DNA from: Acidobacteriota bacterium
GTDB lineage: Bacteria; Acidobacteriota; JAAYUB01
Length of the DNA: 64,000 nt
Assembly: GCA_018001935.1 (NCBI GenBank)
Contig: JAGNHB010000017.1
Coordinates: 784-64,783 of the forward strand
Reading direction: 5' to 3'
The position numbers and the translations under genes are program-made. This document shows positions 2,983 to 62,329 of the stretch, piece by piece (positions within the stretch are counted from its first letter, which is position 1; each line of letters opens with the position of its first letter). The notes beneath the pieces are model-generated. The model was not told the origin of the DNA, ran no database searches, and was given only the letters and a program-made list of their open reading frames with translations.

Positions 2983-6174
<3,192 letters not shown>

Positions 6175-6195
6175 CCGCTGTGGAGGAGGTACGCC

Positions 6196-7725
6196 ATGAT
6201 GGTGCAGAACACTGGCGGGAAGGGCCCTGGCGGGGCCGGTGCCGTCCGGACCGCCCGGGATGCGGGCCTGACCCGTCCCCTCGATCTTCACGTCGGGCTG
6301 GATTTCGGGACGTGCTTTACCAAGCTCTGCTGCCGCCACCTCGGGCGGGACGAGTCCTTCGTGGTCCGGTTGGGCGTCCTGGGGACGGGCCTGGAGGACG
6401 CCCTGATCCCGTCCGTGGTCGGCATCGCCCCGGACGGTCGGCTGGTCGGGGGCCTGACGGAAACCGAGTGGCGGAAGAACCCCGAGCCTTCGCTGCAGCG
6501 GGTCCGCTTCCTGAAAATGCTCCTGGCCGGCGGACGTGTCCCCCATCGGGCCATGAGCTGGGCCGGCGTCAGCGGCCTGAAAACGGCCGACGAGGACCGG
6601 ATCCGCGCCCTCAGCACCTACTTCATCTACCGGGTTCTGGACCGCTTCCGGGGTTGGGCCCGCCACCATTTTCTCGGAGCGGGCAGCACCCGGCCGCTTC
6701 GTCTGTCCTTCAGCCTGGGCGTGCCGGTGGAACAGTTCGACTCCCCGGCGCGGAGGACCTTCCAGGGGGTCCTGAACACCGCCTGCCGGTGGCTGGACGG
6801 CGGACCGATCGACGGCCCCTGGACGCTCGAGCGCGCGCTCAAGCTCATGGCTTCCGGCGAGGGGCGGGAATCCCGGGAGACCGTCGCGGACACGGTGCCG
6901 GAGATCGCCGCGGCGGTCCACGCCTTCCTCGCGTCCCGGCAGTCCCAGCGGGGGGTCTACTTCTACCTGGACATCGGCGGGGGAACCCTGGACGCCGTGG
7001 CCTTCAAACGGTGGGACAAGGACGGCGAGCCCCAGGTGAATTTCTACTGCGGCAAGGTGGAGCCGCTGGGCCTGGATGCCCTGTCCGAGGCCGCCGCGCG
7101 GCGGCTGGACCGGGAGCCGGGAAGCCTCCTGCACTACCTGTCGCGCTCGGAGCCCGGACCCGGGAAGCGTGCGGTTAACCCCCCGGCACCGCGTTTCAGC
7201 TGGATGAAAGGGAAGGAGCCCGCCATGCGGTCCACGGGCCCGGCGAGTCCTGGCCCGGTCGCTGACGAGGGCATTTTTACGCTGCTCGAGCCGGAGCGAC
7301 GGCTGATTCACCGCCAGGTGGGGACCGTGCTGGCGACCTCCCTCAAGAAGGACCCCGTCGCCTTCCGGGCCGGCCGGGGCGACAACCCCTTCCAGAAAGA
7401 CCCGGGGGAGAAGATCTGGGTTTTTTCCGGCGGCGGCGGGGCGGCGTCTACGTTCTATGCGGAGGCCGTGGACGAAGCCTGGCGGCTTCGGCTGAAGCAG
7501 TGCGGGCTGCCGGGGCTCAGCCGCCAGGTCATCGAGGTCCCGGGAGACCTGGAGTTTCTCGGGCTGCCGGCCAGCAGTTACCGTCGCTTCGACATCGCCT
7601 ACGGCTTGTCCATCCCGGAGGAGGACCGTTTCCGGGCCTGGATGCCGAGCCTCTTCGAGCCGCAGGAGGAAGATTCCGGCGCGGCCCGGGGGCTGGACCA
7701 CGTCGACACCCACGACTGGCAGTAG
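6196..7725 (+). CDS. Hsp70/actin-fold (ASKHA) ATPase, NBD-only, no Hsp70 substrate-binding domain
   Basis: Phosphate-1 GLDFGTCFTK, IPSVVGI (compare Hsp70 TPSVVAF), phosphate-2 DIGGGTLDAVAF. RBS GGAGGAGG sits 8 nt upstream. It lies 21 bp after the SNF2 stop. Confidence 0.65.
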   Translation: MMVQNTGGKGPGGAGAVRTARDAGLTRPLDLHVGLDFGTCFTKLCCRHLGRDESFVVRLGVLGTGLEDALIPSVVGIAPDGRLVGGLTETEWRKNPEPSLQRVRFLKMLLAGGRVPHRAMSWAGVSGLKTADEDRIRALSTYFIYRVLDRFRGWARHHFLGAGSTRPLRLSFSLGVPVEQFDSPARRTFQGVLNTACRWLDGGPIDGPWTLERALKLMASGEGRESRETVADTVPEIAAAVHAFLASRQSQRGVYFYLDIGGGTLDAVAFKRWDKDGEPQVNFYCGKVEPLGLDALSEAAARRLDREPGSLLHYLSRSEPGPGKRAVNPPAPRFSWMKGKEPAMRSTGPASPGPVADEGIFTLLEPERRLIHRQVGTVLATSLKKDPVAFRAGRGDNPFQKDPGEKIWVFSGGGGAASTFYAEAVDEAWRLRLKQCGLPGLSRQVIEVPGDLEFLGLPASSYRRFDIAYGLSIPEEDRFRAWMPSLFEPQEEDSGAARGLDHVDTHDWQ

Positions 7726-7743
7726 GGATTGGCCAGCGTTGAT

Positions 7744-7838
7744 GCGTTCGTAAAAAGTACCATCACCCTCCGGGTGATGGCTCAAACAAAGGCTTTACAG
7801 ACACTTTTCCGTCCGTTTTCCGACTTTTTGCGAGGACA
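7744..7838. repeat. IR-L: ~92-bp repeat unit (GC hairpin ccatcaccctccgggtgatgg + T-run on minus strand) in inverted copy relative to 11885..11975
   Basis: The reverse complement matches 11885..11975 nearly base for base (cgcaaaaagtcggaaaacggacg.aaaagtgtctgtaaagcctttgtttgagccatcaccc.gagggtga.ggtactttttgcg). Confidence 0.8.
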
Positions 7839-8286
7839 TCAGCGTTGAGAAATAACTGCTTTTGCTGCAAAAATTTCGCCCCTGGCGGGGCGAGGCGTTC
7901 CCCGCCAGGGTCGACCGGGCCTGCGGTTTTCCGGCGCCGCCTCCGGGGCGCAAGGATTTTCAAATGGCCCGCAACCGGCGGGAGTACCCCCTGCCGGGGG
8001 AACACCCGCCGGCTAATCTCTTTTATCCCTTCGGGATAGGGATTGCCTGGGTGCGGGTTGTTCGCGTTGTGGTTACACAGAATGAAGCCCTGACGGGGTT
8101 CTCCCCGTGCGGTTTGTTCGTCATCGGCCCGGGTTACCCGGGGCGTTCGAAGCGGAGGACGAACCCCTTGCCCGCACCGGCCTTGCCCCGGGTCCCGAGC
8201 GAAGCGCCCCTTTTCCCGCCAGCGTCCCGCCCGGATCCCGACGTCGTCCCGCCCGCGCCCCGCCCGGATCGCGGCCGTTGGCTCTT

Positions 8287-39946: not shown

Positions 39947-44212
<4,266 letters not shown>

Positions 44213-48821: not shown

Positions 48822-48896
48822 TGGAGCCCAAGACCAGGATTGAACTGGTGACCCCCTCCTTACCAAGGAGGTGCTCTACCACTGAGCTACTTGGGC
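48822..48896 (-). tRNA. tRNA-Thr (GGT)
   Basis: Reverse complement: GCCCAAGTAGCTCAGTGGTAGAGCACCTCCTTGGTAAGGAGG...CTTGGGCTCCA. Confidence 0.85.
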
Positions 48897-48921
48897 CCTG
48901 ACGCGTTCCATTGTCAAGGAG

Positions 48922-48997
48922 TGGAGCGGGAGACGGGATTCGAACCCGCGACCCTCAGCTTGGAAGGCTGACGCTCTACCAACTGAGCTACTCCCGC
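48922..48997 (-). tRNA. tRNA-Gly (TCC)
   Basis: Reverse complement: GCGGGAGTAGCTCAGTTGGTAGAGCGTCAGCCTTCCAAGCTGAGGGTCGCGGGTTCGAATCCCGTCTCCCGCTCCA. Confidence 0.85.
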
Positions 48998-49081
48998 GGT
49001 CAAAGTGCTCCAGGCTCGCCGCCGCCGAGGTCGCCGAGCTGTCGCTCTTCCTCGTGACGTCCGGTTTCGCCGGGAGAACTG

Positions 49082-49166
49082 GTGGAGAGGGGAGGATTCG
49101 AACCTCCGTAGGACCGAAGTCCGGCGGGTTTACAGCCCGCTGCCATTAGCCGCTCGACCACCTCTC
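49082..49166 (-). tRNA. tRNA-Tyr (GTA), long variable arm, CCA not encoded
   Basis: Reverse complement: GGAGAGGTGGTCGAGCGGCTAATGGCAGCGGGCTGTAAACCCGCC...GGTTCGAATCCTCCCCTCTCCA. Confidence 0.8.
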
Positions 49167-49196
49167 CATACCGTTGGTTCAAATAACAGGTTTCAA

Positions 49197-49269
49197 AAGC
49201 TGGCGAGAGGACTTGAACCCCCAACCCGCTGATTACAAATCAGCCGCTCTACCGGTTGAGCTACGCCAG
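49197..49269 (-). tRNA. tRNA-Thr (TGT)
   Basis: Reverse complement: GCTGGCGTAGCTCAACCGGTAGAGCGGCTGATTTGTAATCAGCGGGTTGGGGGTTCAAGTCCTCTCGCCAGCT. Confidence 0.8.
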
Positions 49270-49369
49270 CGCGCGAGCGGGGGAAGTTAGCACAACCGCG
49301 GCCAATCTGCAAGCGAAAACGCAAGGAAGTTTCCCCGGTGGAAATCCTCCGAGCGAATGATGAAGTTTA

Positions 49370-49774: not shown

Positions 49775-50253
49775 CCCTGATCCCCGAGGCGATTCCTCGG
49801 AACACCGCAAACCGCACCCTCGATCTGTAGACGTCCTTCGTCGGAGCCGCGACCGTCAGGGAGCGGTAAGCGTTAAATTCCGACCGTTTGCTTCCGGCGC
49901 GGCCCCGATCCGTTTCAAACCCATTGGACGGCGCCCCTGTCCGCGAAGCAATGCCGCCGATGCGGCCGTTCTCGAATTCGGAGGTTTATCTTCACTCGGC
50001 AGAAAGGGTCCCGGGTTCTCCCCGCCGGGCATGGGAAAGACCATACCCCGGCAATTCTCCGGTAAAGATAATGTGCCGGAGTTCAACAGTGTGATATAAT
50101 CAAATTGCCATTTTTCTCTGCCAGACGTGACGGTCGGGACACGAAAAGTTCATCGGCTTCGACGCGCCTTCCGTCGGGAGTTCCTCCCCGGTTCCACCTG
50201 GTTGACGCGGGAAGAAGCATTCATGGCCCTCTCAACGGATGGGGAGGTTGAAC

Positions 50254-53058
50254 ATGACCCAGGAAGAACCTCCGGGAAAAGACGCTGAACGCGCTCCCGG
50301 CCGCTCCGAACAAGTCGACGAGGCCCCCGGGCGACCCTTGGGGCACGGCCCGGGGAGCCTCGGACGACAGATGGACACCCGGGGAATGGACACCACGCCG
50401 GTCACGGGTTTTCACTTCGACGACGCACCGGAGGGCGCACCACCGGGCGCCCCCTCCCCCGAGGCCTCGGCCGCCGCCTTTTCCGCCGAGGCGCCGAACC
50501 CGGTTTTCCCCGAACCGGACCCGGAGTTCCCTCCCCTGCCGAACGTCCGCTACAACGGTTTCCTGGCGGAAGGCGGGATGGGGCGGCTTTTCCGGGCTTT
50601 CCACCTCGGGCTCTCCATGCCGGTGGCGGTCAAGGTATTAAAGCCCGAGGTGGCCTCCCCCGCCATGCTGGAACAGTTCATCGAGGAGGCCCGCATCGCG
50701 GCGAGGATCCGCCACGCTCACGTGGTGCGCGTGCTGGATTGCGGGATCTCCCAGGGGCGGCCTTTCATCGTCATGGAGTATGTCGAGGGGGAGTCGTCCG
50801 CGGACCTGGTGGAGCGGGAGGGCCCGCTTCCGTGGCAACGGGCCGCCCACATCGTCCGCTGCGTGGCCCGGGGGCTGTCGGTGCTTCACCAGGCTCAGAT
50901 CACGCACTGTGACATCAAACCCTCCAACATCCTTCTGGGGAAGGACGGGTCCGTGGTGCTGGCCGACTTCGGCCTCGCCCGCCGGAACCTCGGGGGGGAA
51001 GGCCCCCTCAAGCCGCGGACCCTGCTGGGGACGCTGCAATACATGGCCCCGGAGCAGGTCCGCAACCCGGGACACGCCGATGTCTCCTCCGACCTCTATT
51101 CCCTGGGGGCGAGTTTTTTCCACCTTCTGTCGGGGGACACGCCCTTCACGGGGTCGATCCTGAAAGTCCTCCAGGCCCTGATGACCGACCAGGCCCCCCC
51201 ACGGCTGGAGAGCCTGAAACCGGGTATCCCCCTGGCGCTCTGCGAGCTGACCCACCGGATGATCGACGTCAACCCCTCCCACCGCCCCGCCAGCGCGGCG
51301 GCCGTCGAACAGGAACTGGACCAGGTCCTCGCCCGGTGCGCCGCCCCCCGGGCCGCCCAGCGCTCCGGGGCCGCCCGGGGAGGCCTTCCGCGCCGTGCCG
51401 TCGACTTCGCCTTTCTCGGCTACGGGAGTTCCGCGGACCCTTGCGGGGACGGCATCCCCCGGCTCTACCTGGACGTGGGAAACTCCCTCGGACCGGGGGT
51501 GATCGACCAGCACCACCTGCTGGCGTACATGGGGTCCACCACTTCGCTGCTCCGGCAACATCCCGAGTTTGTCCGAGCCACCCTGAACCCCGGGGCCGTT
51601 CCGCCGGAGGTCTACACGATCCTGGTGCACCAGCAGCCGGACCTGGACTGCGTCTGCGCCGCCTTCCTGGCTGTCGGCCTCCTGTGCGACGGCGAACTGC
51701 CCGAGGGCGCCGAGGTCCTTTCCCACTACACCGACCGGGTGGACGCGGGGTATTCGGGCACGATCCCCGAGAACCCCTTCTCGCTGTACACGGCCTACGT
51801 GTACCTGAGCCACCGGTTGAGCCTCCGTGCGTGGCGTTGCCCTGAAGACGGCTGGTCCCGTCGCCTGGCGGAGGGGCTCGAACTGGTGGGGTACGCCCTT
51901 CGGGAGTCGCTCCGGGCGGGCGTTTCACTCTGGGAGGTGGACGCCTTCGGCTGCCCGGGGCTCTTCAGCGAAGTCGACCGGAAGGAGGTGCGGCGGGACC
52001 GCGACCGCTACGAGCGGAAGCTCGCCGACCCGGAGTGCAGGGCGCGGATGAGCCGACTCGCCCTGCCGGCCCTTTTCGGAAGCTCCCGGGAGATCGACGC
52101 GCTGATGATCCGCCGTGTCCAGGGGGCTTCGGACCCCGACCGGTGCATCTTCTTCAAGGACTGGGCGAGGTCCGACACCCGCCGGACCGAGACGGGGTTC
52201 ACGTTTCTCTCGGTCTACGAGCCCCTCTCCCCGACCCGCGGGCGGGCCATCCTCTCCGTGAAGCCCGAGAGCGGGCTGATCCTCCGGGGGCTCGGGGAGG
52301 CCCTGGACCGCTCCGAATCCGAGTTGCGCCGGAGCCGCGAAGGGCGGGACCCGCGGCTGGACAGCGCTCCCCGCCAGGGGTATTCGAACGCGGATCCCTG
52401 GTACGACGGGAGGGCCCACGTCTACACCATCGTCGACGCCCCGAGGGAAGGCACCGTCCTGTCGGCGGACGAGGTGGAGGCGCGGGTGCTGGAGTTCTCG
52501 GCCCACAGCGCCATCGGCCCCCGGGCCGCCTTACCCGGCCCGGACCAGCCCACCGCCGCCGTCACCGGGGAATCGGTCCGCTGGTACACCTTCCTGGCCC
52601 GGCAGTGGCGTTGGGAAATGGGGGAGCCCCCGGGCGACGCCGTCCCGTCCGTTCTCGTCTGGACCGTCCCGGACGGTGAGGCGTGGGCCCGGGAAAACCT
52701 GGTTCTGCCGCTCAGGGCGAGGCTCCCCGCGGCAGCGGGCCCCGAGGCCGTCCGGCTGTTCGCCGCGTCGGAGCCGCTGGGCGGGCCCTTGTTGGCGGAA
52801 TTGGCGCGCTGGATCGAGAGGTGCCGGGTGTTCCTCCCCGTCCTGGACGCGTCCTTTCTTTCCCGGGAGGACTGCCTGTGGGCCTTCCAGAGCGCCCTGA
52901 CCCGGGACCCGCGCGGCGAGAAGGGGATCGTCCGGCCCCTGTTCGCGGAGGGGACCGACCTTCCCCGGTGGTGTTCGGAGCTTCGCCGGGGGACGGCCAT
53001 CCCCGCCGCGTCCCCGCCGGCGCTGATCGAGGGGATCGTGCAGGCGTTCGGGCGATAG
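50254..53058 (+). CDS. Eukaryotic-like Ser/Thr protein kinase fused to an unknown ~450-aa middle region and a C-terminal TIR-like (flavodoxin-fold) domain
   Basis: The kinase has a GxGxxG-like GGMGRLF, VAVK, HCDIKPSNILL, DFGLAR and APE. The C-terminal 160 aa read SVLVWTVPDGE...RLFAASE...CRVFLPVLDASFLSREDCLWAFQSAL...IVRPLFAEG, which resembles a TIR beta-alpha pattern. RBS GGGGAGG before ATG at 50254. Confidence 0.8.
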   Translation: MTQEEPPGKDAERAPGRSEQVDEAPGRPLGHGPGSLGRQMDTRGMDTTPVTGFHFDDAPEGAPPGAPSPEASAAAFSAEAPNPVFPEPDPEFPPLPNVRYNGFLAEGGMGRLFRAFHLGLSMPVAVKVLKPEVASPAMLEQFIEEARIAARIRHAHVVRVLDCGISQGRPFIVMEYVEGESSADLVEREGPLPWQRAAHIVRCVARGLSVLHQAQITHCDIKPSNILLGKDGSVVLADFGLARRNLGGEGPLKPRTLLGTLQYMAPEQVRNPGHADVSSDLYSLGASFFHLLSGDTPFTGSILKVLQALMTDQAPPRLESLKPGIPLALCELTHRMIDVNPSHRPASAAAVEQELDQVLARCAAPRAAQRSGAARGGLPRRAVDFAFLGYGSSADPCGDGIPRLYLDVGNSLGPGVIDQHHLLAYMGSTTSLLRQHPEFVRATLNPGAVPPEVYTILVHQQPDLDCVCAAFLAVGLLCDGELPEGAEVLSHYTDRVDAGYSGTIPENPFSLYTAYVYLSHRLSLRAWRCPEDGWSRRLAEGLELVGYALRESLRAGVSLWEVDAFGCPGLFSEVDRKEVRRDRDRYERKLADPECRARMSRLALPALFGSSREIDALMIRRVQGASDPDRCIFFKDWARSDTRRTETGFTFLSVYEPLSPTRGRAILSVKPESGLILRGLGEALDRSESELRRSREGRDPRLDSAPRQGYSNADPWYDGRAHVYTIVDAPREGTVLSADEVEARVLEFSAHSAIGPRAALPGPDQPTAAVTGESVRWYTFLARQWRWEMGEPPGDAVPSVLVWTVPDGEAWARENLVLPLRARLPAAAGPEAVRLFAASEPLGGPLLAELARWIERCRVFLPVLDASFLSREDCLWAFQSALTRDPRGEKGIVRPLFAEGTDLPRWCSELRRGTAIPAASPPALIEGIVQAFGR

Positions 53059-53244: not shown

Positions 53245-53540
53245 ACGGAGGGAATCCCCACAGCGTCGCCAGGCAGTTCCCAGGGCTGAAATGCCCCGCT
53301 CGTGCCGATCCTGGTCCGGAATCGACGAGAAAAGTCTCTCGCCAAGACGCCAGGATGCAAAGCCTCGCAAAGGGATCCCCCTTTTCCGGTTCCGGCTTTG
53401 CGTCTTGGCGAGAGGTTGAGACCGCCTGTTTTTTATTTTCTGTTTTCTTCGTTCGTGTGGTTCGTGTGGTTCGTGGTTCTTTTCCCTTTCGTGTATTCCG
53501 TGTATTTCGTGGTTCCTTCTCCGGTTTATCCGGCTTGGGC
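53245..53540. repeat. Repeat family E copy 1: ~100-nt structured stem-loop (tctcgccaagacgc...gcgtcttggcgaga), U-tract, then 9-bp iteron-like direct repeats (ttcgtgtgg x3; cgtgtattc x2), directly upstream of gene start 53557
   Basis: A homologous copy lies at 60657..60940 and a partial copy at 55195..55245. Each sits immediately 5' of a + strand gene. Confidence 0.7.
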
Positions 53541-53556
53541 ATCCCAGGAGGTCCCC

Positions 53557-54492
53557 GTGAAAGAGCGCTACATTCGCGAGATCCTGTCGGGTTTTCCCTA
53601 CCCGATCACCGCCTACTTCACGAAGCTGGGGACGGACGAGTGCCTGGACCCCGGCCCGCTGCGGCTGAAGTACCTGCTGGCCACGGGGGAGGCGGTGGGG
53701 CGGTTCCTGGGGGTGGTGGTCCTGGCCGAGGTGCGGGACCGTCTGGAGGAGCCGGGGGCGCCGTCGCTGCCGGCGTCCCTGGTGTCGGACTTCGCGAAGC
53801 GGTACCGGTCGCCCTCGTGGGGGAACTGGCTGCACTTCGCCCGGGAGGGGCTCAAGTGGCTGAGCCTGGGCGGAGTGAGCCTGGTGATGCCGGAGCTGAC
53901 GGGGTTTTACTTCGGGAAGTTCCCGGCGGAGAGCGAGGCGGCGGAAGCGCTGGGGAAGATGCTGACGCTGCGGAACGGGCTGAGCCACGAGCGGATCCGG
54001 GCGATGACGGGGCGGGAGTTCCAGGGGCTGTGCGAGGAGGCGGAGCCGCTGCTGGAGGCCGTGCTGACGGCGCTCGCGTTCCTGCCGGACCACGAACTGG
54101 TGTTCGTGAGCCGGATCGAGGTGACGAAGCGGCGGCGGACGCCGGCGTCGTTTTTGCACCGGCTGAGCCGGATCGTGGGGGACTCGTCGGACTTCCGGGG
54201 GGACCGGAAGACGCTGCCGCGGTACCTGGACCCGGGGTGCATCCTGCTGGAGGGGGAGGGGGAACGGCTGCTGAACCTGGACCCGTTCCTGGTGTACGAG
54301 CCGTCGGCGGGGAAGGCGCCGGACGTGTTCTTCTACGACGGGTTCAAGCGGGCGGGGAGCGCGGAGTACGTGGCGTGCAACCACGGGGGGGGCTTCGGGA
54401 GCGCGGCGGCGGAACGGGGCGGCGAACTGTGGGAGGAGGCGGCGTACCTGCTGCGGCTGGTGACGGGCGAAGCGCCCGGCCAGGGGGCGTGA
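53557..54492 (+). CDS. Hypothetical protein (no recognisable domain) boxed in by inverted iteron blocks
   Basis: 312 aa with a GTG start after AGGAGG. Strong GC3 bias. No catalytic motif recognised. Confidence 0.55.
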   Translation: MKERYIREILSGFPYPITAYFTKLGTDECLDPGPLRLKYLLATGEAVGRFLGVVVLAEVRDRLEEPGAPSLPASLVSDFAKRYRSPSWGNWLHFAREGLKWLSLGGVSLVMPELTGFYFGKFPAESEAAEALGKMLTLRNGLSHERIRAMTGREFQGLCEEAEPLLEAVLTALAFLPDHELVFVSRIEVTKRRRTPASFLHRLSRIVGDSSDFRGDRKTLPRYLDPGCILLEGEGERLLNLDPFLVYEPSAGKAPDVFFYDGFKRAGSAEYVACNHGGGFGSAAAERGGELWEEAAYLLRLVTGEAPGQGA

Positions 54493-54600
54493 GGGTGCCG
54501 GGAGGACTCGGATTGAACCACGAAATACACGGAATACACGAAATGAAAAACAGCATCTTCTGCACGGTTTACGCATATTGTTTGGTCTGTCCTGTGAAAT

Positions 54601-55020
54601 ATGGCATATTTCACTCGACAAATCGGGCAAATCAGGAAGCAGATGAATAAAGAGCATTTAATAGAAGCGCTTACGGAATGGAACTTCTGGAAACGGCCGT
54701 TTCCCCCGACCCTGAATCGCCCGGCTTATGAAACGGAATTGACCCGGAAAGCGTCCGCCGGGGAAATCGTGGTCCTCAAGGGAGTCCGTCGGAGTGGAAA
54801 ATCCACCCTCCTGATCAACACGATCAAGTCTCTGCAGGCGGGCGGGACCCCACCCGAGGAGATCCTCTACGTGAACCTCGAGGACCCGCGGTTTTCCGGT
54901 GACCTGCGGCCGGAATTCCTCCAGGAGATCAAGGACACCTTTCTGGAATACCTTGCTCCCCGGCGAAACCCCTGGATCTTTCTCGACGAGATCCAGAATG
55001 TCGCGGGGGTTGAAAAGTGA
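54601..55020 (+). pseudogene. Truncated AAA_14/DUF4143-family ATPase (N-terminal 139 aa only); paralogue of 61058..62329
   Basis: Walker A GVRRSGKST and Walker B IFLDEIQNV are present. It ends at VEK-stop where the full-length paralogue continues for ~280 aa. A 21-bp perfect palindrome gtgaaatatggcatatttcac overlaps the ATG. Confidence 0.6.
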
Positions 55021-55261
55021 CTGGCAAAGGAACACGACCTGGGCGGGGGAGGCGCGGTGGAACTGCTGATCCTGGCTCCGGATCGGGAGGAGGTCATCCC
55101 GGTCAACGGGCGGCAGGTCCGGGTCCGAAACCTCCTGAACTGGCTGTTGGAGGCCCAGGCATGAAGAGCATTGAACAGCCGGAACCTCGGAGCCCTTGGC
55201 GAGGCTTTGCGTCTTCGCGCCTTGGCGAGAGGCTTATAACATCGACCGATCGAGGTGAGCC

Positions 55262-58200
55262 ATGACTGAACCCGAACGCCCGGACGGTCCCGAGTCTTTG
55301 GACGACCTTTTCGGCCCGGTGAAGGAAGCCGCGGCGTTAGGGCGGAAGCCCTTCAAGTTCCTCGACCCCTACGGTCCCGAGGACGCCGACCTGTTCTTCG
55401 GGCGGGACCCGGAGATCCGGGAGGTCTACGCACGCTACTACGGGAGCCGGCTGCTGCTGGTGTACGGGGAGTCGGGGGCGGGGAAGACCTCGCTGCTGCA
55501 GTGCGGGCTGCGGGGGCGGGTGCCGCCGGAGGAGGCGCTGTTCGTGCCCTTCCGCTCGGGGGAGGACCCGCTCGAATCCCTCCGGCGGGAAGTGCTGCGC
55601 CGCGTGGCGTTCCCCGACGGGGCGCCGGAAGACGACCTGGAGCTGCTGCGGGAGGCGGCGTTCCGGAAGCGCAAGACCCTGGCGCTGGTGTTCGACCAGA
55701 TGGAGGAGTGCTTCCTCTTCGCGCCGAAGGCGGCGCGGGAGCGCTTCGCGAAGGCCCTGGCGGCCTGGATGGCGGCGGGGGTGAACGTCAGGGTGGTGCT
55801 GTCCATCCGGGAGGAGTACCTGGCGCGGCTGGGGGAGTGGGAACCGCTGCTGCCCGAGCTGTACCGGAACCGGCTGTGGGTGCGGCGGGTGGACTTCGGG
55901 GACGTGAAGGAGCTGGTGGAGGGCCCGTGCCGGGCGGTGGGGGTGCCGGTGGAGCCGGACCTGACGGCGGCCGTCACGCGCCTCTTCGAGCGGGAGGCGC
56001 GGGGGGTGGACCTGCCCACGTTCCAGGTGCTCATGGACCGGCTGTACGACGAAGCCTCCACGCGCGGCGAGACGCCGGTGGCCCTGAAGGCGGCGGACCT
56101 CGAGCGCGTGGGCGGCCTGGAGGACGTCCTGGCGGCGTTCCTGGAGCGGGCGGCGTCGGAGCTGCCCGACCCGGCGGCGGGGCGGGAGCTGCTCAAGGCC
56201 ATGGTGTCGGCGGAGGGGACGAAGCTCCGGGCCGGGGCGGAGGCGCTGGCAGCGGGGGCCGGCCTGGACCCGGCGGCGGCGGTCCCGCTGCTGGCGTCCC
56301 TCGAAACCGCGCGGGTGGTGCGCCGGCTGCCGGAGGGTGAGGAGTGGGAGCTGCGGCACGACCGCCTGGCGAAGGTGGTGTTCGGCTGGCTGTCGGAGAC
56401 GGAGAAGGACCTGCTGGAAGCGCGGCGGATGGTGGAGGGGCGTCTGAAGGACTACCAGTCCCGGGGCCTGCTGCTGGACACGGCGGCGCTGAAGGCGATC
56501 GTGCCCTTCGAGAAACCCCTCTCGCGGCACCCGGCCACGGCGGAGCTGATCCGGAAGAGCCGTGAGCACCTCGCGGCCCTCTCCCGCCGCCGGAAGCGCC
56601 TCGTCGCCGAGGTCACGGGCATCGCCTTCCTGGTGCTGGCGCTCTTCACCGTCTGGAACGTCCGCGAGCGCCGCGCGGCGGAACGGGAACGCGATCGGGC
56701 GGAGCAGATGGCTGCCGAGGTTCGGGCAAGCGAGGCGAAAACCACACAAGCCTTCGCTCTTTCCCTCTTCCACCGGATGGAAATCGCCTTGGAAAAAGGC
56801 CGGCGAAACGAGGTCATCTCCCTCCTCGTGGGGGCCATACGGCTATCACGCGCCAATGGGCTTTATCTGGACCGGCTCGTGAATCAATTGACGGTTGTCG
56901 GTATCGCCCTGCCCGTTTCTCCACCCCTGCGTCATTCGGACGAGGTTTGGTACGTCGCCTTCAGCCCCGACGGATCAAGAGTGGCTACGGGATCTGCGGA
57001 CAAGACTGGCCTAGTATGGGATGCGCGGACAGGGGTTGCGTTGACGCCTCCGTTACAGCATGGAGGTCCCGTCAGCGGAGTAGCCTTCAGCCCGGATGGA
57101 GCCAGAGTGGCCACGTCTTCATGGGATGGCACTGCGCGGGTATGGGATGCGCGGACAGGAGCGGCCTTGACAGCCCCGCTTCGCCACGAGAAAGCCGTCG
57201 ACCGGTGTATCACCTTCAGCCCGGATGGAACCCGCCTGGCGACCGGTTCCATGGATAATACCGCTAGGGTCTGGTGTTCACAAACGGGGAAAGCGATTAC
57301 CCCTTCGCTGAAACACGGGGGGCTGGTCTTTGCACTTGCATTCAACCGGGACGGCACAAGGCTGGCAACGGCTTCTTTCGACAAGACCTCCCGCGTGTGG
57401 AATGCCCTGACAGGAGAACCGGTTACGGCTCCGCTAAAGCATGATGACGAGGTTGTGGACGTCGCGTTCAGCCCAGATGGAACCAGGGTGGCAACCGCGT
57501 CGCTTGATAAAACAGTCCGGATCTGGGATGCACGGACTGGCGCGGCGGTGACGGCCCCGCTGATGCATGAAAACAAGGTCTGGAAGGTCGTGTTCAGCCC
57601 GAATGGGAAGCAGGTCTTTTCTTTCACCGACACTTCGACGTATATCTGGAATGCCCAAACAGGTGAGTCGATTGAAATTCCCTTCAGAGATCATCAATGG
57701 AGTTGTGTGGCATTCAGCCCTGATTTGACGAGGGTCCTTTCACAGAATCCGAATTGCGCACGCGTGAAGGACATACGAACGGGAGCCACGGTCACGGAAT
57801 TCATGCAACACAACGCAACCCTCTTGCTGGGGATTTTTAGCCCGGACGGGCAGTGTGCTGCCACGTATTCCAGGGATCAGACGGCTCGCATCTGGGACGC
57901 CCGCGGGAGAGGGGCCCTGCCGATTCCTTTGAATCTTGAGAATCGAGGAACCTGTGCTGCCTTCAGCCCGGACGGGACACGATTGGCGGCGCCAAGCGGA
58001 GATCGTGGGGTAAGGCTTTGGGACACAAAATCCGGAGGGGAGATTCTGCCCTCACTCAGGCCTGAAGGCAAGATAGGTTATATCGGTTTCGACCCGAGAG
58101 GGCTTCGGGTGGCCACCGTGTCCGATGTTGCGGCGCAGCTCTGGGATGCCCGGACAGGGCAACCGCTGTGCGCACCCTTGAGGCTTTCCACCACCATCCG

Positions 58201-59191
58201 CGCGTTTGCCTTCAGCCCGGACTGGGGATGTCTGGCCATGGCCTCCACGGACAGAACCGTCCAAATCTGGGAAACACGAACAGGATCGGCATTGAAAGCC
58301 CCCCTTCGATGCGACGGCGATATCCTGGACCTGGCTTTCCACGCGGACGGAACTCGATTGGTCGTGCTGTGTGGGGATCGCACAACCTGGCTTTGGAATT
58401 TCCGGAAAAGGACCTTTGAAAAGGTCACGCTGCGGTGTGGGGAAAAGTGTGACATATACCTGAGTCCTGAGGGGACGAAAATCGCCTCACGATCCGAAAA
58501 TCAAAGTGTAGTGCGGGTCTGGGATGCCCGGACAGGTTTGGCATTGACGCCACCGCTGAAGCACGAGGCTCCAGTCAAGTTCATTACTTTCAGCTTGGAT
58601 GGGACTCTGCTAGCCACTGGATCTTTATGGATAGTGCATCTTTGGGACCTGCGTACCGGCGCGGCAACAGCAAAGCTAATTCATGAAGGAATGGTCGAGG
58701 GAGACGCTTTCGTCCCTGTCATCAACGCAAGCTTCAGCCAAGATGGCACGCGATTGATTACGGAAACAAAAGACCGAGCCGTCCGGATCTGGGATGTCAA
58801 AGCGGGGGCGATGGCCACCGAACCGCTCCAGCATGACGAGCCTGTACACTTTGCTATTTTCAGTCCTGACGGGAAGCGGGTGGCCACGATGTCAGGCGAC
58901 CACACCCTGTTGGTCTGGGACCTCGGGCTCGGGCTTCGGAACCCGCCCGACTGGTTCTTGAGCCTGGCCGAAGGGTTGGCGGGGTTGCGGTTAGACGATT
59001 CGGGCAACTTGATCCCCGTGATCGATTCCTGGGACCGTCTCCAAAAAGCCCGGGCAATCGCTGCGACAGGAGATCCAACAGATCCGTGGATTCACTGGGC
59101 GCGCTGGTTCCTGGCCGACTGCGACACGCGCACTGTCTCCCCTTCCTCCGACGCCACCGCAGCGCAATACCGCGCCCTCCACCCCCGGTGA
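55262..59191 (+). CDS. STAND-type P-loop NTPase - helical region - single TM helix - ~14 WD40 repeats (1309 aa)
   Basis: Walker A LVYGESGAGKTSLL and Walker B LALVFDQMEE. A TM helix IAFLVLALFTVWNV at ~aa 455. Repeated motifs VAFSPDG.R.AT.S.D.T.R.WDA.TG from there to the C-terminus. Confidence 0.85.
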   Translation: MTEPERPDGPESLDDLFGPVKEAAALGRKPFKFLDPYGPEDADLFFGRDPEIREVYARYYGSRLLLVYGESGAGKTSLLQCGLRGRVPPEEALFVPFRSGEDPLESLRREVLRRVAFPDGAPEDDLELLREAAFRKRKTLALVFDQMEECFLFAPKAARERFAKALAAWMAAGVNVRVVLSIREEYLARLGEWEPLLPELYRNRLWVRRVDFGDVKELVEGPCRAVGVPVEPDLTAAVTRLFEREARGVDLPTFQVLMDRLYDEASTRGETPVALKAADLERVGGLEDVLAAFLERAASELPDPAAGRELLKAMVSAEGTKLRAGAEALAAGAGLDPAAAVPLLASLETARVVRRLPEGEEWELRHDRLAKVVFGWLSETEKDLLEARRMVEGRLKDYQSRGLLLDTAALKAIVPFEKPLSRHPATAELIRKSREHLAALSRRRKRLVAEVTGIAFLVLALFTVWNVRERRAAERERDRAEQMAAEVRASEAKTTQAFALSLFHRMEIALEKGRRNEVISLLVGAIRLSRANGLYLDRLVNQLTVVGIALPVSPPLRHSDEVWYVAFSPDGSRVATGSADKTGLVWDARTGVALTPPLQHGGPVSGVAFSPDGARVATSSWDGTARVWDARTGAALTAPLRHEKAVDRCITFSPDGTRLATGSMDNTARVWCSQTGKAITPSLKHGGLVFALAFNRDGTRLATASFDKTSRVWNALTGEPVTAPLKHDDEVVDVAFSPDGTRVATASLDKTVRIWDARTGAAVTAPLMHENKVWKVVFSPNGKQVFSFTDTSTYIWNAQTGESIEIPFRDHQWSCVAFSPDLTRVLSQNPNCARVKDIRTGATVTEFMQHNATLLLGIFSPDGQCAATYSRDQTARIWDARGRGALPIPLNLENRGTCAAFSPDGTRLAAPSGDRGVRLWDTKSGGEILPSLRPEGKIGYIGFDPRGLRVATVSDVAAQLWDARTGQPLCAPLRLSTTIRAFAFSPDWGCLAMASTDRTVQIWETRTGSALKAPLRCDGDILDLAFHADGTRLVVLCGDRTTWLWNFRKRTFEKVTLRCGEKCDIYLSPEGTKIASRSENQSVVRVWDARTGLALTPPLKHEAPVKFITFSLDGTLLATGSLWIVHLWDLRTGAATAKLIHEGMVEGDAFVPVINASFSQDGTRLITETKDRAVRIWDVKAGAMATEPLQHDEPVHFAIFSPDGKRVATMSGDHTLLVWDLGLGLRNPPDWFLSLAEGLAGLRLDDSGNLIPVIDSWDRLQKARAIAATGDPTDPWIHWARWFLADCDTRTVSPSSDATAAQYRALHPR

Positions 59192-59733: not shown

Positions 59734-60231
59734 GTGTGGGACGTCCGGTCGGGGTTGACGGTGACCGGGCCGTTGGGCGGGTCCGCGGAAAGTGCCGCGG
59801 ACCCGCACGGGGCGGGAAAGGTGTACGACGAGCTGATGGAGTGGGCCGACGGCCCGGCCGGGCCGAACCTGATGACCGTGGGGTACGACGGGTACGTCAG
59901 GGCCTGGGAGCTCGGGCTCGGCCTGCGCAACCCCCCCGGCTGGGTCCTGGACCTGGCCGAGGCGGTCACGGGGCTGCGGCTGGACGAAACCGCCTATCCG
60001 TTGCAGATGCCGGCCGCCGAGGTGTGGGAGCGGATCCGGCGGGCCCGGGAGGAGGCGGCGCGCGGGGACCCGAAGGACCCCTGGGTCCGCTGGCTGCGCT
60101 GGTTCCTGGCGGACCGCGACACCCGGACCCTCTCGCCCTTCTCGGACGTCACGCCGGCGCAGTACCGCGACCTCCACCCGAACCCGGCGCCGGCCCCGAA
60201 GACCCCTGCCCCGCCGGGTGCCGGGCCCTGA
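59734..60231 (+). pseudogene. Orphan fragment homologous to the last WD repeat + C-terminal ~90 aa of the 55262..59191 protein
   Basis: WELGLGLRNPPGWVLDLAEAVTGLRLDE...DPKDPWVRWLRWFLADRDTRTLSPFSDVTPAQYRDLHP aligns to ...WDLGLGLRNPPDWFLSLAEGLAGLRLDD...DPTDPWIHWARWFLADCDTRTVSPSSDATAAQYRALHPR. There is no start context, and the frame is open upstream into low-GC DNA. Confidence 0.6.
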
Positions 60232-60268: not shown

Positions 60269-60565
60269 TTTCCCCCGCGCGCCGCAGGGTCCTCACCCCG
60301 TCAGGTTAAATGTTGGTATTAAAAGAGGTTATTTTTCATTCCCCCCGCGCGCCGCCGGGGGTTTACCATACTCCGGAGCGCCCTCCCGGCCGGCGGCGCG
60401 CGGGGGAGGAGAATATTTATAACTGCCTTTTCTACAAATATTTCACCCCTGACGGGGTGAAGACGCGGCGGGCACGATCCCGGCGGGTCGAGGGCATGGC
60501 GGGCACGATCCACACGGGGCGAGAACGCGGCGGGCACGATCCCGACAGAGTGGGGACGCGGTGTA
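60269..60565. repeat. Composite repeat copy D: degenerate hairpin+TIR half copy, full GC palindrome, TIR ttctacaaatatttcacccctgacggggtga, ~4 tandem 30-bp units
   Basis: Same architecture as copies B and C. The tandem units are gacgcggcgggcacgatcccggcgggtcgagg and similar. Confidence 0.7.
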
Positions 60566-60656
60566 CACGACCCTGGCGGGGAAGAACGCCTTGCTCCCGC
60601 CACCTTCGGGGTGGGTTTGTTTTTGCGAGGCGTCGTTTCTTCCCCGGGGCGGGGAC

Positions 60657-60940
60657 GGAGGAGGGAATCCCGGCAGCGTCGTCCGGCATGCCCCGGGGCT
60701 AAAATGCCCCACTGGTGCTGATTCGGTTCCGGAATCGACGTATCCGGTCTCTAGCAAAGACGCAAAGCCTCGCAAAGGAATCCCCCTTTTCCGGTTCCGG
60801 CTTTGCGAGGCTTGGCGTCTTTGCGCCTTTGCGAGAGGTAAAGACCGCCTGTTTTTTTTCTGGAGCGTCCGGATGATCCGTGCCCATCCGTGTTCATCCG
60901 TGTTCATCCGTGGTTTCTCTCCGGTTTATCCGGGTTGGGA
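60657..60940. repeat. Repeat family E copy 2 (structured stem-loop + 10-bp direct repeats atccgtgNNc x4) upstream of the full-length AAA_14 ATPase
   Basis: It shares ggagggaatccc...gctaaaatgcccc...ccggaatcgacg...caaagcctcgcaaagg.atccccctttttccggttccggctttgcg...cgagagg...gaccgcctgttttttt...ctccggtttatccgggttggg with copy 1. Confidence 0.7.
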
Positions 60941-61057
60941 CGGCCTTTTCGGTGAGGATGGAATTCTAGCCGGACCTTCGTCGGAGCCAGGAAAAGCGAG
61001 GTCGGCTGCGCATGATAATTCTTGAACTGCACAAATAATCATGTTATTGTGCAGTTC

Positions 61058-62329
61058 ATGATCACTGATGCGATATATCAACACAGAATCGAACGGGACC
61101 GGAATCTCGCCGCTCCCACTGTTCCGAGAGAGTTACTCCGCGGTGCGCGGGCGGAGATGTCCAGTCCGCTGATCAAGGTCATCACGGGTCCGCGACGGGC
61201 CGGCAAGTCGGTTTTTGCGTTTCAACTGCTTGCCGGTCAGAATTTTGCTTACATCAACCTTGACGATGAACGCCTGGTCGGCCAGCGGGATTTCGACGAG
61301 ATCATGAAGGCCCTGGTGACGGTCTACGGCCCCGTCACTTCCCTGCTTTTCGACGAGATCCAGAATTTCCCCAGCTGGGAGTTGGTCGTGAACCGCCTTC
61401 ACCGGCAAGGGTATGCCATCGTCGTCACCGGCTCCAACGCCCACCTTCTCAGCCGCGAACTCGGCACCCATCTCACGGGACGGCATGTGGAATTCCGGAT
61501 TCTGCCGTTCTCTTTCCGGGAGTACTGTCTCGCCCGGGGAGAAACCGCAAGGCAGGGCATGCCCGATCCCGAAGCCGTGATGCTCCATCGCTTCGGCCAA
61601 TACCTCGAAACCGGCGGTTACCCCGAAGTCGTCATCGGGGGGGTACAGGCAAAGAGCTATCTCGCCACCCTTTTCGAAAGCGTCCTTTTCAAGGATGTTG
61701 TTAAGCGGTACCGGGTCAAATACCCGCGGAAACTCCATGAACTGGCTCTCTACCTCACCTCCAATCACTCCAGCGAGTACACGTTCAATGCCATCAGAGG
61801 GGCTCTTGGTTTCCGAAGTGTTCATACCGTGGAGAACTACACCGCCTACCTGGCGGAGTCATACCTCTTCTTTTCGGTGGAGCGTTACTCCCCGAAGCTT
61901 AAGGAGCTGTTCAAGGCTCCCCGAAAAGCGTATTCCATAGACCTCGGCCTGATCGATGCCGTCAAGTTCAAGAGTCTGCCGGACCGGGGCCGACTGCTGG
62001 AAAACCTGGTTGCCCTGGAACTGCTCCGCCGGGGAAACCGCTTCTATTCCTACAAATCCGCCGGCAGCAGGGAGTGCGACTTCGTCGTCCGCGAGGGGAA
62101 CACAACGGCCGAACTGATCCAGGTGGCTTATGAGACCCCTTCGCCCAAGACCTTCAAGCGTGAACTGACTGGCCTGGCCGCCGCGGCGAGGGACCTCTCC
62201 TGCGATCGCCTGACCTGTCTGACCTGGAACGAGACCTGGGAGCGGCGCATCGACCGGTGGAAAGTGAAGGCCCAACCGGTATGGCGGTGGTTGATGGAAA
62301 GCCGCGACACCGGTCCCCCTGAGGCCTGA
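61058..62329 (+). CDS. AAA_14/DUF4143-family ATPase (full length)
   Basis: Walker A ITGPRRAGKSV, Walker B LLFDEIQNF, and a C-terminal DUF4143-like region. Start taken at MITDAIYQ (61058). A 34-bp palindrome gaactgcacaaataatcatgttattgtgcagttc sits immediately upstream. The track start at 61022 lies inside the palindrome. Confidence 0.75.
   Translation: MITDAIYQHRIERDRNLAAPTVPRELLRGARAEMSSPLIKVITGPRRAGKSVFAFQLLAGQNFAYINLDDERLVGQRDFDEIMKALVTVYGPVTSLLFDEIQNFPSWELVVNRLHRQGYAIVVTGSNAHLLSRELGTHLTGRHVEFRILPFSFREYCLARGETARQGMPDPEAVMLHRFGQYLETGGYPEVVIGGVQAKSYLATLFESVLFKDVVKRYRVKYPRKLHELALYLTSNHSSEYTFNAIRGALGFRSVHTVENYTAYLAESYLFFSVERYSPKLKELFKAPRKAYSIDLGLIDAVKFKSLPDRGRLLENLVALELLRRGNRFYSYKSAGSRECDFVVREGNTTAELIQVAYETPSPKTFKRELTGLAAAARDLSCDRLTCLTWNETWERRIDRWKVKAQPVWRWLMESRDTGPPEA

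Follow-up and report, generated by a model that had tools for sequence, protein, structure and literature searches.

STAND-NTPase conflict systems with separate effectors have been described in two studies (Kaur et al., 2020, PMC7159879; Kaur et al., 2021, PMC8195603), the latter of which names nSTAND1, and combinations of HEPN domains with STAND NTPases in a third (Anantharaman et al., 2013, PMC3710099). Here, we describe a related locus in a 64,000-nucleotide stretch of DNA from an Acidobacteriota bacterium (assembly GCA_018001935.1, contig JAGNHB010000017.1, positions 784 to 64,783; this whole stretch is called the window). A gene on its plus strand (50254..53058) encodes a Hanks-type Ser/Thr kinase, a probable DHH/DHHA1-like module and a TIR domain in a single protein, and is followed by genes for a small HEPN-like protein and for an nSTAND1 NTPase with WD40 repeats. 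As in the described systems, nSTAND1-WD40 stands beside a small HEPN-like protein, as a conserved operon in other lineages, TIR domains and Ser/Thr kinases are among the effector domains listed in those papers, and the third gene is variable and swappable. DHH-type domains, in contrast, are not mentioned once in any of the three. Judged from domain content and gene neighbourhood, the protein has an about even chance (a probability of roughly 0.5) of serving a STAND-centred conflict system as an accessory component, either in signalling or as effector. Rather than an ordinary kinase, it is probably part of an immune-type signalling system of bacteria.

Two further groups of proteins serve as a reference. 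The TIR domain shares its fold and profile homology with prokaryotic TIR proteins (ThsB of Thoeris, AbTir and the TIR-APAZ protein of SPARTA) as well as with MyD88 and MAL. It differs from the prokaryotic TIR proteins in that a kinase and a DHH-like module belong to the same polypeptide, and from Thoeris- and SPARTA-type systems in lacking a ThsA, SIR2, SLOG or Argonaute partner. Known substrates of DHH enzymes are pAp, nanoRNA, cyclic dinucleotides, single-stranded DNA, polyphosphate and pyrophosphate, and the DHH/DHHA1 phosphoesterases considered here comprise NrnA, Rv2837c/CnpB, GdpP, Pde2, PggH, DhhP, TM1595, archaeal RecJ/GAN, PPX1 and the family II pyrophosphatase. Unlike these, the module described below is found fused to kinases, TIR domains or STAND-type NTPases, and no such fusion of a DHH domain was found in the literature searched.

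Architecture of the protein

The gene codes for 934 amino acids (aa) when read from the ATG at 50254 and for 939 aa from the ATG at 50239; residue numbers throughout refer to the longer open reading frame (ORF; 50239..53058, plus strand), whose 939 codons have a GC content at third positions (GC3) of 0.88, typical of the surrounding genes. The ATG at 50254 is the second one of the ORF and has a GGAGG 6 nt upstream of it. The protein is present at NCBI as “protein kinase” of an Acidobacteria metagenome-assembled genome (MAG; P0001 in our set) in a shorter form of 895 aa, which is identical over its 895 aa. An earlier sequence-only reading of this DNA had divided the protein into a kinase, a middle region and a TIR-like C-terminus. 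Its ORF is real, every peptide string that it quoted is found in the translation, and the three-part layout is borne out by the analyses below.

The middle region as a predicted DHH/DHHA1-like module

The middle region had been described as matching nothing recognisable. At the level of sequence this holds, as no Pfam, NCBIfam or PADLOC family matched it above threshold, but the region is not an orphan: AlphaFold modelling, Foldseek searches and a DHH motif I point to a conserved family core with a DHH/DHHA1-like fold, spanning aa ~388-757 (51400..52509, plus strand). The AlphaFold model, built with 52 sequences, reached a pLDDT of 90.9 and a pTM of 0.88. Searched against the PDB with Foldseek, it retrieved essentially only DHH/DHHA1 enzymes (E ~1e-3, probability up to 0.99, TM ~0.3), namely Rv2837c, NrnA, PAP phosphatase, PPX1, GdpP, RecJ, DhhP and TM1595. 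The predicted structure shows the two-lobed arrangement of a DHH and a DHHA1 domain, for which these enzymes are the best and nearly sole structural matches, and its C-terminal lobe resembles DHHA1 and the C-Ala domain of AlaRS.

Sequence comparison gave a weaker signal in the same direction. Among 21 standalone members of the family, 16 weakly match Pfam DHH (PF01368), no other family being recurrent; these alignments cover motif I only and score 14.5–15.2 bits, which is below the gathering threshold (GA) of 28.1. Pfam DHHA1 (PF02272) gave no match at E<=10 in any of the 21. The spacing of a DVGx element and a DHH-like element had suggested MYG1/UPF0160 as a possible identity, which was rejected, as the same 21 members yielded neither a UPF0160 nor a DHHA1 match at E<=10.

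Six motifs mark the module in the protein studied here: LDVGN (411-415), IDQHH (422-426), HQQPDLD (464-470), DRVDAG (499-504), FFKDWARSD (638-646) and DPWYDGRAH (719-727). In a set of 235 full-length members, 71 of them distant, the positions of motif I (H-x-x-P-D-x-D, here H464-Q-Q-P-D468-L-D470, which aligns to motif I of DHH phosphoesterases) are 88–100% conserved. Conservation of 90–100% was found for D412, G414, D423, H425, H464, P467, D468, D470, Y497, D502, G504, K640, W642, R644, S673, E693 and the stretch D719-x-W-Y-D-G-R725, and of 86–87% for N415; the pattern holds in the distant set as well, and the protein of the window keeps every one of these residues. Such an Asp/His constellation reads as the signature of a metal-dependent active site and not as that of a scaffold. 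Metal ligands other than those of motif I could come from the conserved elements D-x-G-N, D-x-H and D-x-G.

The order of these elements differs from that in DHH/DHHA1 phosphoesterases. The D-x-G-N (411-415) and D-x-H (422-426) elements stand ahead of motif I, on its N-terminal side, rather than following it, with only the D-x-G (502-504) coming after, and the AlphaFold model places strands 388-393, 408-411 and 421-423 before the motif I strand. The topology of the module therefore seems to be rearranged or permuted relative to canonical DHH domains. Taken together, the middle region is probably a divergent DHH/DHHA1-like phosphoesterase module, as predicted from its fold and its conserved residues.

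Domain partners and distribution of the module family

A homologue search with aa 381-939 revealed a variety of architectures, in whose names the DHH-like module is abbreviated as “mid.” The module occurs alone (~370–450 aa), as kinase-mid (~700 aa), mid-TIR (~570 aa), kinase-mid-TIR and mid-kinase, and further as TCAD9 (kinase-like)-mid, as TIR-P-loop NTPase-mid and as mid-X with long unknown extensions. The commonest form is kinase-mid, mostly from Planctomycetota. In light of these varied architectures, the module is, as far as sequence comparison goes, the conserved core of the family, with kinase and TIR as interchangeable signalling or effector partners. Kinase and TIR occur together in five of the 262 sampled members, so the fusion emphasised by the sequence-only reading is not unique to this protein, but the combination is rare within the family.

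A profile search of 1.84 billion representative sequences recovered 1,157 clusters (50% identity) at E<=1e-3, of which 395 remained at E<=1e-30. All genome matches come from MAGs (Planctomycetota, Acidobacteriota/Thermoanaerobaculia, Myxococcota, Syntrophomonadaceae, Verrucomicrobiales and one Woesearchaeote), and members have so far been found in uncultured organisms only. A metagenome scan for close relatives of the protein on longer contigs gave none above 50% identity. Some members are very large. Giant ORFs of more than 4,200 aa with a single DHH-like module were seen in a Woesearchaeota MAG (L022, 7376-21223) and at a second locus (L070, 3251-16105), and the representative library holds members of 6,862 and 2,808 aa (P0238 and P0239).

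The TIR domain and its missing glutamate

The C-terminal part (aa ~801-939; 52639..53055, plus strand) adopts a predicted TIR fold. By itself, the protein matches Pfam TIR_2 with E=1.6e-4 and 22.6 bits, which is below the GA of 28, while its homologues carry PF13676 and a family profile matched TIR chains of TLR2, MyD88, L6 and Cat1 in the PDB with E down to 6e-10. TIR homology is consequently secure, yet the domain of this protein is degenerate. An AF2 model of aa 761-939 (pLDDT 86.6) had MyD88, MAL, AbTir, TLR1 and the SPARTA TIR as top Foldseek matches, with TM up to 0.68. The proposal of a TIR-like C-terminus is thereby confirmed; neither a fold other than TIR nor a fusion restricted to this one protein, which the sequence-only reading had named as arguing against it, was found.

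The same reading had noted that a canonical catalytic Glu context is lacking and had considered a scaffolding TIR. In the alignment of the family profile to TLR2, the Glu of the family motif CQW-E-LQ falls on the Glu of WCxxEL, the catalytic glutamate of TIR NADases, which lies on the alphaC helix. The family consensus CQWELQ reads CLWAFQ in the protein studied here, i.e., W-A-F in place of W-E-L, with Ala882 (codon GCC, 52882..52884, plus strand) at the Glu position. Among 48 TIR-bearing members, 43 have Glu, four have Ala (the protein of the window, the identical P0001, P0002 and P0003) and one is truncated. The check for a conserved Glu thus agrees with the earlier suspicion. The exchange is confined to the clade of this protein, which also switched from HRD to HCD in the kinase, and two further family motifs are altered in the protein of the window (FISY to LVWT and FFD to LFA).

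Of the three domains, TIR is the most diverged one. Its identity to P0002 and P0003 nevertheless amounts to 66% and 56%, respectively; it is therefore kept in the clade rather than decaying. A non-catalytic TIR serving as scaffold is the natural reading of this sequence pattern. In this respect the protein resembles the non-catalytic animal adaptors MyD88 and MAL, which share the lack of the catalytic Glu, while a link to bacterial NADase TIRs exists through its ~570-aa DHH-TIR relatives, which keep this residue. A dead TIR joined to a non-RD kinase is reminiscent of the pairing of MyD88 with IRAK.

The kinase domain

Residues 109-358 (50563..51312, plus strand) form a Hanks-type Ser/Thr kinase domain (Pfam PF00069 Pkinase, E=2.9e-46, 158.4 bits, GA 31.7). 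It contains the motifs GGMGRLF, VAVK, EEARIAARI, HCDIKPSN, DFG, MAPE and DLYSLG, and its catalytic set is complete, with K132 (VAVK, beta3), E149/E150 (alphaC), D225 and N230 (HCD225...N230), D243 (DFG) and the APE motif. The earlier assignment as a Hanks kinase is accordingly supported by the Pfam match, but its motifs are not all intact: the HRD position reads HCD, Cys replacing Arg, and in the G-loop Ala takes the place of the first glycine. The Arg of HRD marks RD kinases, which are regulated by activation-loop phosphorylation. Owing to the HCD motif, the domain is classified as non-RD. This protein, P0002 and P0003 share HCD; HRD is found in P0004 and in the homologues from Planctomycetes.

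PADLOC models of PD-T4-6 match the kinase strongly (E=1e-69), and mad6 was matched as well. These matches were rejected as evidence of membership, as they are confined to the generic kinase domain (aa 106-386); the middle region, the TIR domain and the HEPN-like gene had no match in the PADLOC scan. With PD-T4-6 and other kinase-based defence genes the protein consequently shares the kinase domain, but not the parts that follow it.

Association with HEPN-like and nSTAND1-WD40 genes

As the next genes, the sequence-only reading had named a STAND NTPase-WD40 and AAA ATPases. Both the nSTAND1-WD40 gene and an AAA_14+DUF4143 gene were confirmed, but a HEPN-like gene at 53557-54492 had been overlooked. 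This gene (plus strand) starts with a GTG after an AGGAGG and codes for 311 aa; the listed ORF 53302-54492 in fact represents this shorter gene from GTG 53557. It belongs to a family of ~60 clusters, all close to 313 aa and 43–63% identical across phyla, in which R139, N140 and H144 of an R-N-x3-H (Rx4H) motif are invariant. Pfam HEPN_MAE_28990 is matched by 12 of 26 members, others matching Swt1 or RiboL-PSP HEPN. Based on the invariant motif and these matches, we consider the protein a HEPN-like predicted RNase; sequence searches of the PDB with the protein and its profile gave no match.

Two genes downstream of the kinase/DHH-like/TIR gene, the nSTAND1 NTPase (55262..59191, plus strand; 1309 aa) combines Pfam nSTAND1 (E=3e-43) with WD40 beta-propellers, i.e., an adjacent STAND NTPase with a repeat sensor. 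No effector-associated adaptor domain common to the two proteins was found. The NTPase has its N-terminal motif SLDDLF...PFKFLDPYGPED..FFGR in common with those of the loci L046-L048, and judged by sequence its gene is orthologous to the one found directly after the HEPN-like gene in other phyla. In each of the six other lineages examined (L046, L047, L048/49, L088/89, L090/91 and L092/93), the HEPN-like and nSTAND1 genes, the latter usually with WD40, overlap or abut as an operon. The NTPase noted in the sequence-only reading is therefore the operon partner of the overlooked HEPN-like gene, and the proposed conflict-system context is supported, but in another form than suggested, with STAND-WD40 coupled tightly to the HEPN-like gene.

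The L092/L093 pair (3975-8103) is without WD40 and is followed by two co-oriented genes for 902 and 471 aa, which have no Pfam match and no DHH-like module and may be alternative third and fourth components.

For the module, linkage was scanned at 74 loci with hidden Markov models built in this analysis. In L086, a gene with the module is followed by HEPN-like and then nSTAND1 genes, and in a Latescibacter locus found from the HEPN-like side (L048), HEPN-like and nSTAND1-WD40 genes are followed by mid-X. At L054 (995-4744, JGI contig Ga0247840_10029590), an nSTAND1 gene with a short WD40 region is separated by a 4-bp gap from a mid-TIR gene with intact catalytic Glu; here, DHH-TIR stands in the place of the HEPN-like effector, which suggests effector swapping. 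HEPN-like domains adjoin the module in further arrangements: only 4 bp separate X-mid from a downstream gene whose product begins with a HEPN-like domain (L072), a HEPN-like-domain protein lies upstream of mid-X (L031), and in three Thermoanaerobaculia loci (L027, L028 and L032) a HEPN-like-kinase-PAP2 protein is encoded near a 1,400-aa mid protein. Within the clade of the protein studied here, three independent assemblies place a HEPN-like orthologue of 82% identity 130 bp behind the P0002 orthologue; since the contigs of P0002 and P0003 are at most 5 kb long, the gene order of this clade is seen only as far as the HEPN-like gene.

The Thermoanaerobaculia loci, together with L038, also share a wider neighbourhood (Thermoanaerobaculia/Acidobacteriota MAGs, ~10–19.5 kb in each), consisting of the 1,400-aa protein with its N-terminal DHH-like module, a PhnD-like substrate-binding-domain protein, an ~870-aa protein and a cNMP-binding protein. 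The ~870-aa protein has a HEPN-like N-terminus, a kinase and PAP2 in L027, L028 and L032, the kinase alone being detected in L038; Pfam annotation was made for L027 only, where the cNMP-binding protein is encoded alongside. Another kinase gene was found nearby in 19 of the 74 loci. Furthermore, kinase-WD40 genes come after that of P0009, and a TIR-AAA_16-WD40 gene lies facing that of P0030.

The sequence-only reading had advised checking co-occurrence with STAND-WD40 genes. Most homologues are without STAND or WD40 neighbours, but the module recurs beside the HEPN-like/nSTAND1 pair or HEPN-like domains. Both families are rare (~1,157 clusters in 1.84 billion representatives and ~60 clusters, respectively), which makes chance adjacency negligible. 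The link between the module and HEPN-like/nSTAND1 genes is facultative.

Weighing the proposed role

Several observations weigh against a role in a conflict system. An nSTAND1 neighbour was detected in just two of the 74 module loci and WD40 in five, and most members, including the Planctomycete kinase-mid proteins and the standalone P0092, have no STAND or HEPN neighbours. From the other side, five of nine HEPN/nSTAND1 lineages carry no DHH-like gene in their flanks, so that the gene is facultative, unlike in the STAND-centred systems described before, and the synteny around P0002 could reflect shared ancestry alone. In the window itself, the three genes are split by spacers of 499 and 770 bp with repeats, a terminator-like hairpin and a gene fragment, which makes their co-transcription doubtful.

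These points would suit a housekeeping kinase of the ordinary sort, one of many eukaryote-like Ser/Thr kinases of bacteria that signal with a regulatory or sensor region at the C-terminus, whose HEPN-like and nSTAND1 neighbours are inherited synteny without functional link. The prevalence of Planctomycetota kinase-mid proteins in contexts apparently unrelated to defence fits this explanation, as does the position of the gene, which directly adjoins four minus-strand tRNA genes (48822-49270) and a likewise minus-strand tuf-nusG-rplKAJL-rpoBC cluster upstream, and so does PADLOC, which matches nothing beyond the generic kinase domain; repeats and the hairpin, too, separate the gene from the next one. 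It is difficult to reconcile, however, with the adjacency or fusion of two very rare families (DHH-like module and HEPN-like domain/nSTAND1), which recurs in five or more unrelated lineages and in varying gene order, or with members fused to catalytically intact TIR and to TIR-NTPase, which is typical of conflict systems. We regard the housekeeping explanation as possible, if rather unlikely.

Further reservations concern the module. Its likeness to DHH enzymes is remote, both in the structural comparison and in the Pfam DHH scores, with sequence similarity under every curated threshold, and its motif order appears rearranged. When motif I was moved ahead of the N-terminal strands in ten members, the re-permuted sequences gained no Pfam DHH score and four of the ten alignments merely extended to profile position 76, for which reason the permutation is put forward here as a suggestion. 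The canonical GGGH motif of DHHA1 is absent as well; in its place, at a comparable C-terminal position, stands the conserved D719-P-W-Y-D-G-R-x-H727, which might be its equivalent. Missing GGGH and unusual motif order could indicate that the module is a non-catalytic sensor of ligands or nucleic acids, or a scaffold comparable to Cdc45 or AlaRS C-Ala, with kinase or TIR as output, and its placement C-terminal to kinases and to TIR-NTPase is where sensor domains usually stand. Cdc45 and C-Ala, however, lack the DHH-type Asp/His ligands, whereas D412, D423, H425, H464, D468, D470 and D502 are near-invariant in close and distant members alike, and a purely sensory module is accordingly improbable.

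Least probable of all is a TIR domain that remains catalytic via a relocated acidic residue and cleaves NAD+ or nucleic acid, the DHH-like site processing the product, in which case the protein would function as its DHH-TIR relatives do. In its favour, each of the three sequences without the Glu (SRED, YREN and SSEG) has an acidic residue, E876, at six positions before Ala882, and the domain is well conserved in the clade. Against it, the canonical Glu is replaced in every clade member, FISY and FFD are altered in the protein of the window too, the Pfam TIR_2 score is below gathering and TIR is the fastest-evolving domain.

Spacers, repeat elements and flanking genes

Between the kinase/DHH-like/TIR gene and the HEPN-like gene lies a repeated intergenic element of ~290 bp (53247..53540). 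A direct copy (60660-60940, 78–93% identity) is located upstream of the AAA_14/DUF4143 gene, and partial inverted copies at 54515-54550 (36 nt, 94% complementarity) and 55189-55245 (57 nt, 81%) bracket the HEPN-like gene. Its sequence includes short tandem motifs (GTTCGTGTG / CGTGTATTTCGTG) and, at 53402-53434, a terminator-like hairpin with a T-run, and Rfam gave no match to it; the element may be similar to a miniature inverted-repeat transposable element (MITE) or a duplicated promoter/terminator region. Rfam and promoter/terminator scans of 48.5–62.5 kb recovered nothing but tRNAs, and the frequency of terminator-like sites did not exceed that of shuffled sequence.

The 770 bp between the HEPN-like and nSTAND1 genes hold, besides repeat copies, a truncated AAA_14-type ATPase fragment (54601..55020, plus strand) with P-loop (GVRRSGKST) and Walker B (IFLDEIQ) only. 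It is a paralogue of the full-length AAA_14+DUF4143 gene at 61022-62329, which matches the PADLOC candidate system PDC-S01 (E=2e-106), and shares the repeat family D16 with it. Downstream of the nSTAND1-WD40 gene, its 3' tail (58912-59184) is duplicated after ~1 kb at 59901-60179 with 71–78% identity, giving rise to a fragmentary 165-aa ORF (59734-60231), a sign of local duplication or rearrangement. A tandem repeat at 60447-60589 (period 31/62 nt, ~2.3–3.5 copies, GGCGGGCACGATCC core) occupies the spacer before the AAA_14 gene, with GC-rich inverted repeats nearby (60271-60407).

On the upstream side, a tRNA-linked island was considered and rejected, as the 3' ends of the tRNA genes face away from the cluster and no integrase was seen. 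The phage, plasmid and IMG/VR collections gave no match, and a mobile or viral origin was likewise rejected. The minus-strand rpoB gene (39947-44212) encodes an N-terminal insertion (protein aa ~90-136) with weak zinc-ribbon matches (DUF7577, E=1.6e-4; DZR; Zn_Ribbon_1), which is unusual for RpoB.

Putative mechanism and implications

The types to which the parts of this locus are assigned are already known, namely Hanks kinases, TIR domains, the DHH superfamily and STAND/HEPN conflict systems (PMC7159879, PMC8195603, PMC3710099). The literature searched, covering DHH together with TIR, kinase, STAND or Thoeris and the conflict-system papers of the Aravind group, contains no description of the module, and neither there nor in curated libraries did we find the module family, its apparently rearranged motif order or its fusions to kinase, TIR or NTPase. 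A HEPN-like/nSTAND1-WD40 operon with a DHH-type component is likewise not described in this literature.

As a component of a conflict system, the protein would be a cytoplasmic three-module signalling protein heading a three-gene cluster with the HEPN-like RNase and the nSTAND1-WD40 NTPase. The WD40 propellers could sense a ligand of an invader or of stress, upon which the STAND NTPase would oligomerise and license the HEPN RNase. The kinase/DHH-like/TIR protein might then act as accessory regulator or second effector, modulating or complementing the STAND-controlled RNase. Its DHH-like module is predicted to be a binuclear-metal phosphoesterase, which would bind a nucleotide-derived small molecule or short oligonucleotide and hydrolyse its phosphoester or phosphoanhydride. 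The non-RD kinase is probably active, and the TIR domain, having lost its Glu, may now offer an assembly or adaptor surface only. In this way, the protein could couple turnover of a nucleotide signal or substrate to protein phosphorylation, the dead TIR recruiting partners or oligomerising. In the DHH-TIR relatives, a catalytic TIR might supply or consume a related NAD-derived species, while the non-RD kinase would provide the output in the clade described here.

A more far-reaching possibility, which is speculative and which we consider doubtful, is that the module represents a new, topologically rearranged DHH branch that makes or destroys a nucleotide-derived messenger in nSTAND1/HEPN immunity, the partner domains (catalytic TIR, kinase, or dead TIR with non-RD kinase) being alternative means to write or read this signal. 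Irrespective of this idea, an unannotated but strongly conserved module of ~370 residues gains a structural and a probable enzymatic identity as predicted DHH-type metal phosphoesterase, and is seen to combine promiscuously with kinases, TIR domains and STAND NTPases. Were it to act on a nucleotide signal, a new enzyme class would join TIR/STAND immune signalling, and the family would offer a natural experiment in which catalytic and dead TIR domains as well as RD and non-RD kinases are compared on the same scaffold. Should the messenger idea prove true, STAND-based bacterial immunity would have a new arm that signals through nucleotides, and this acidobacterial clade would pair a dead TIR with a non-RD kinase in the manner of a Myddosome.

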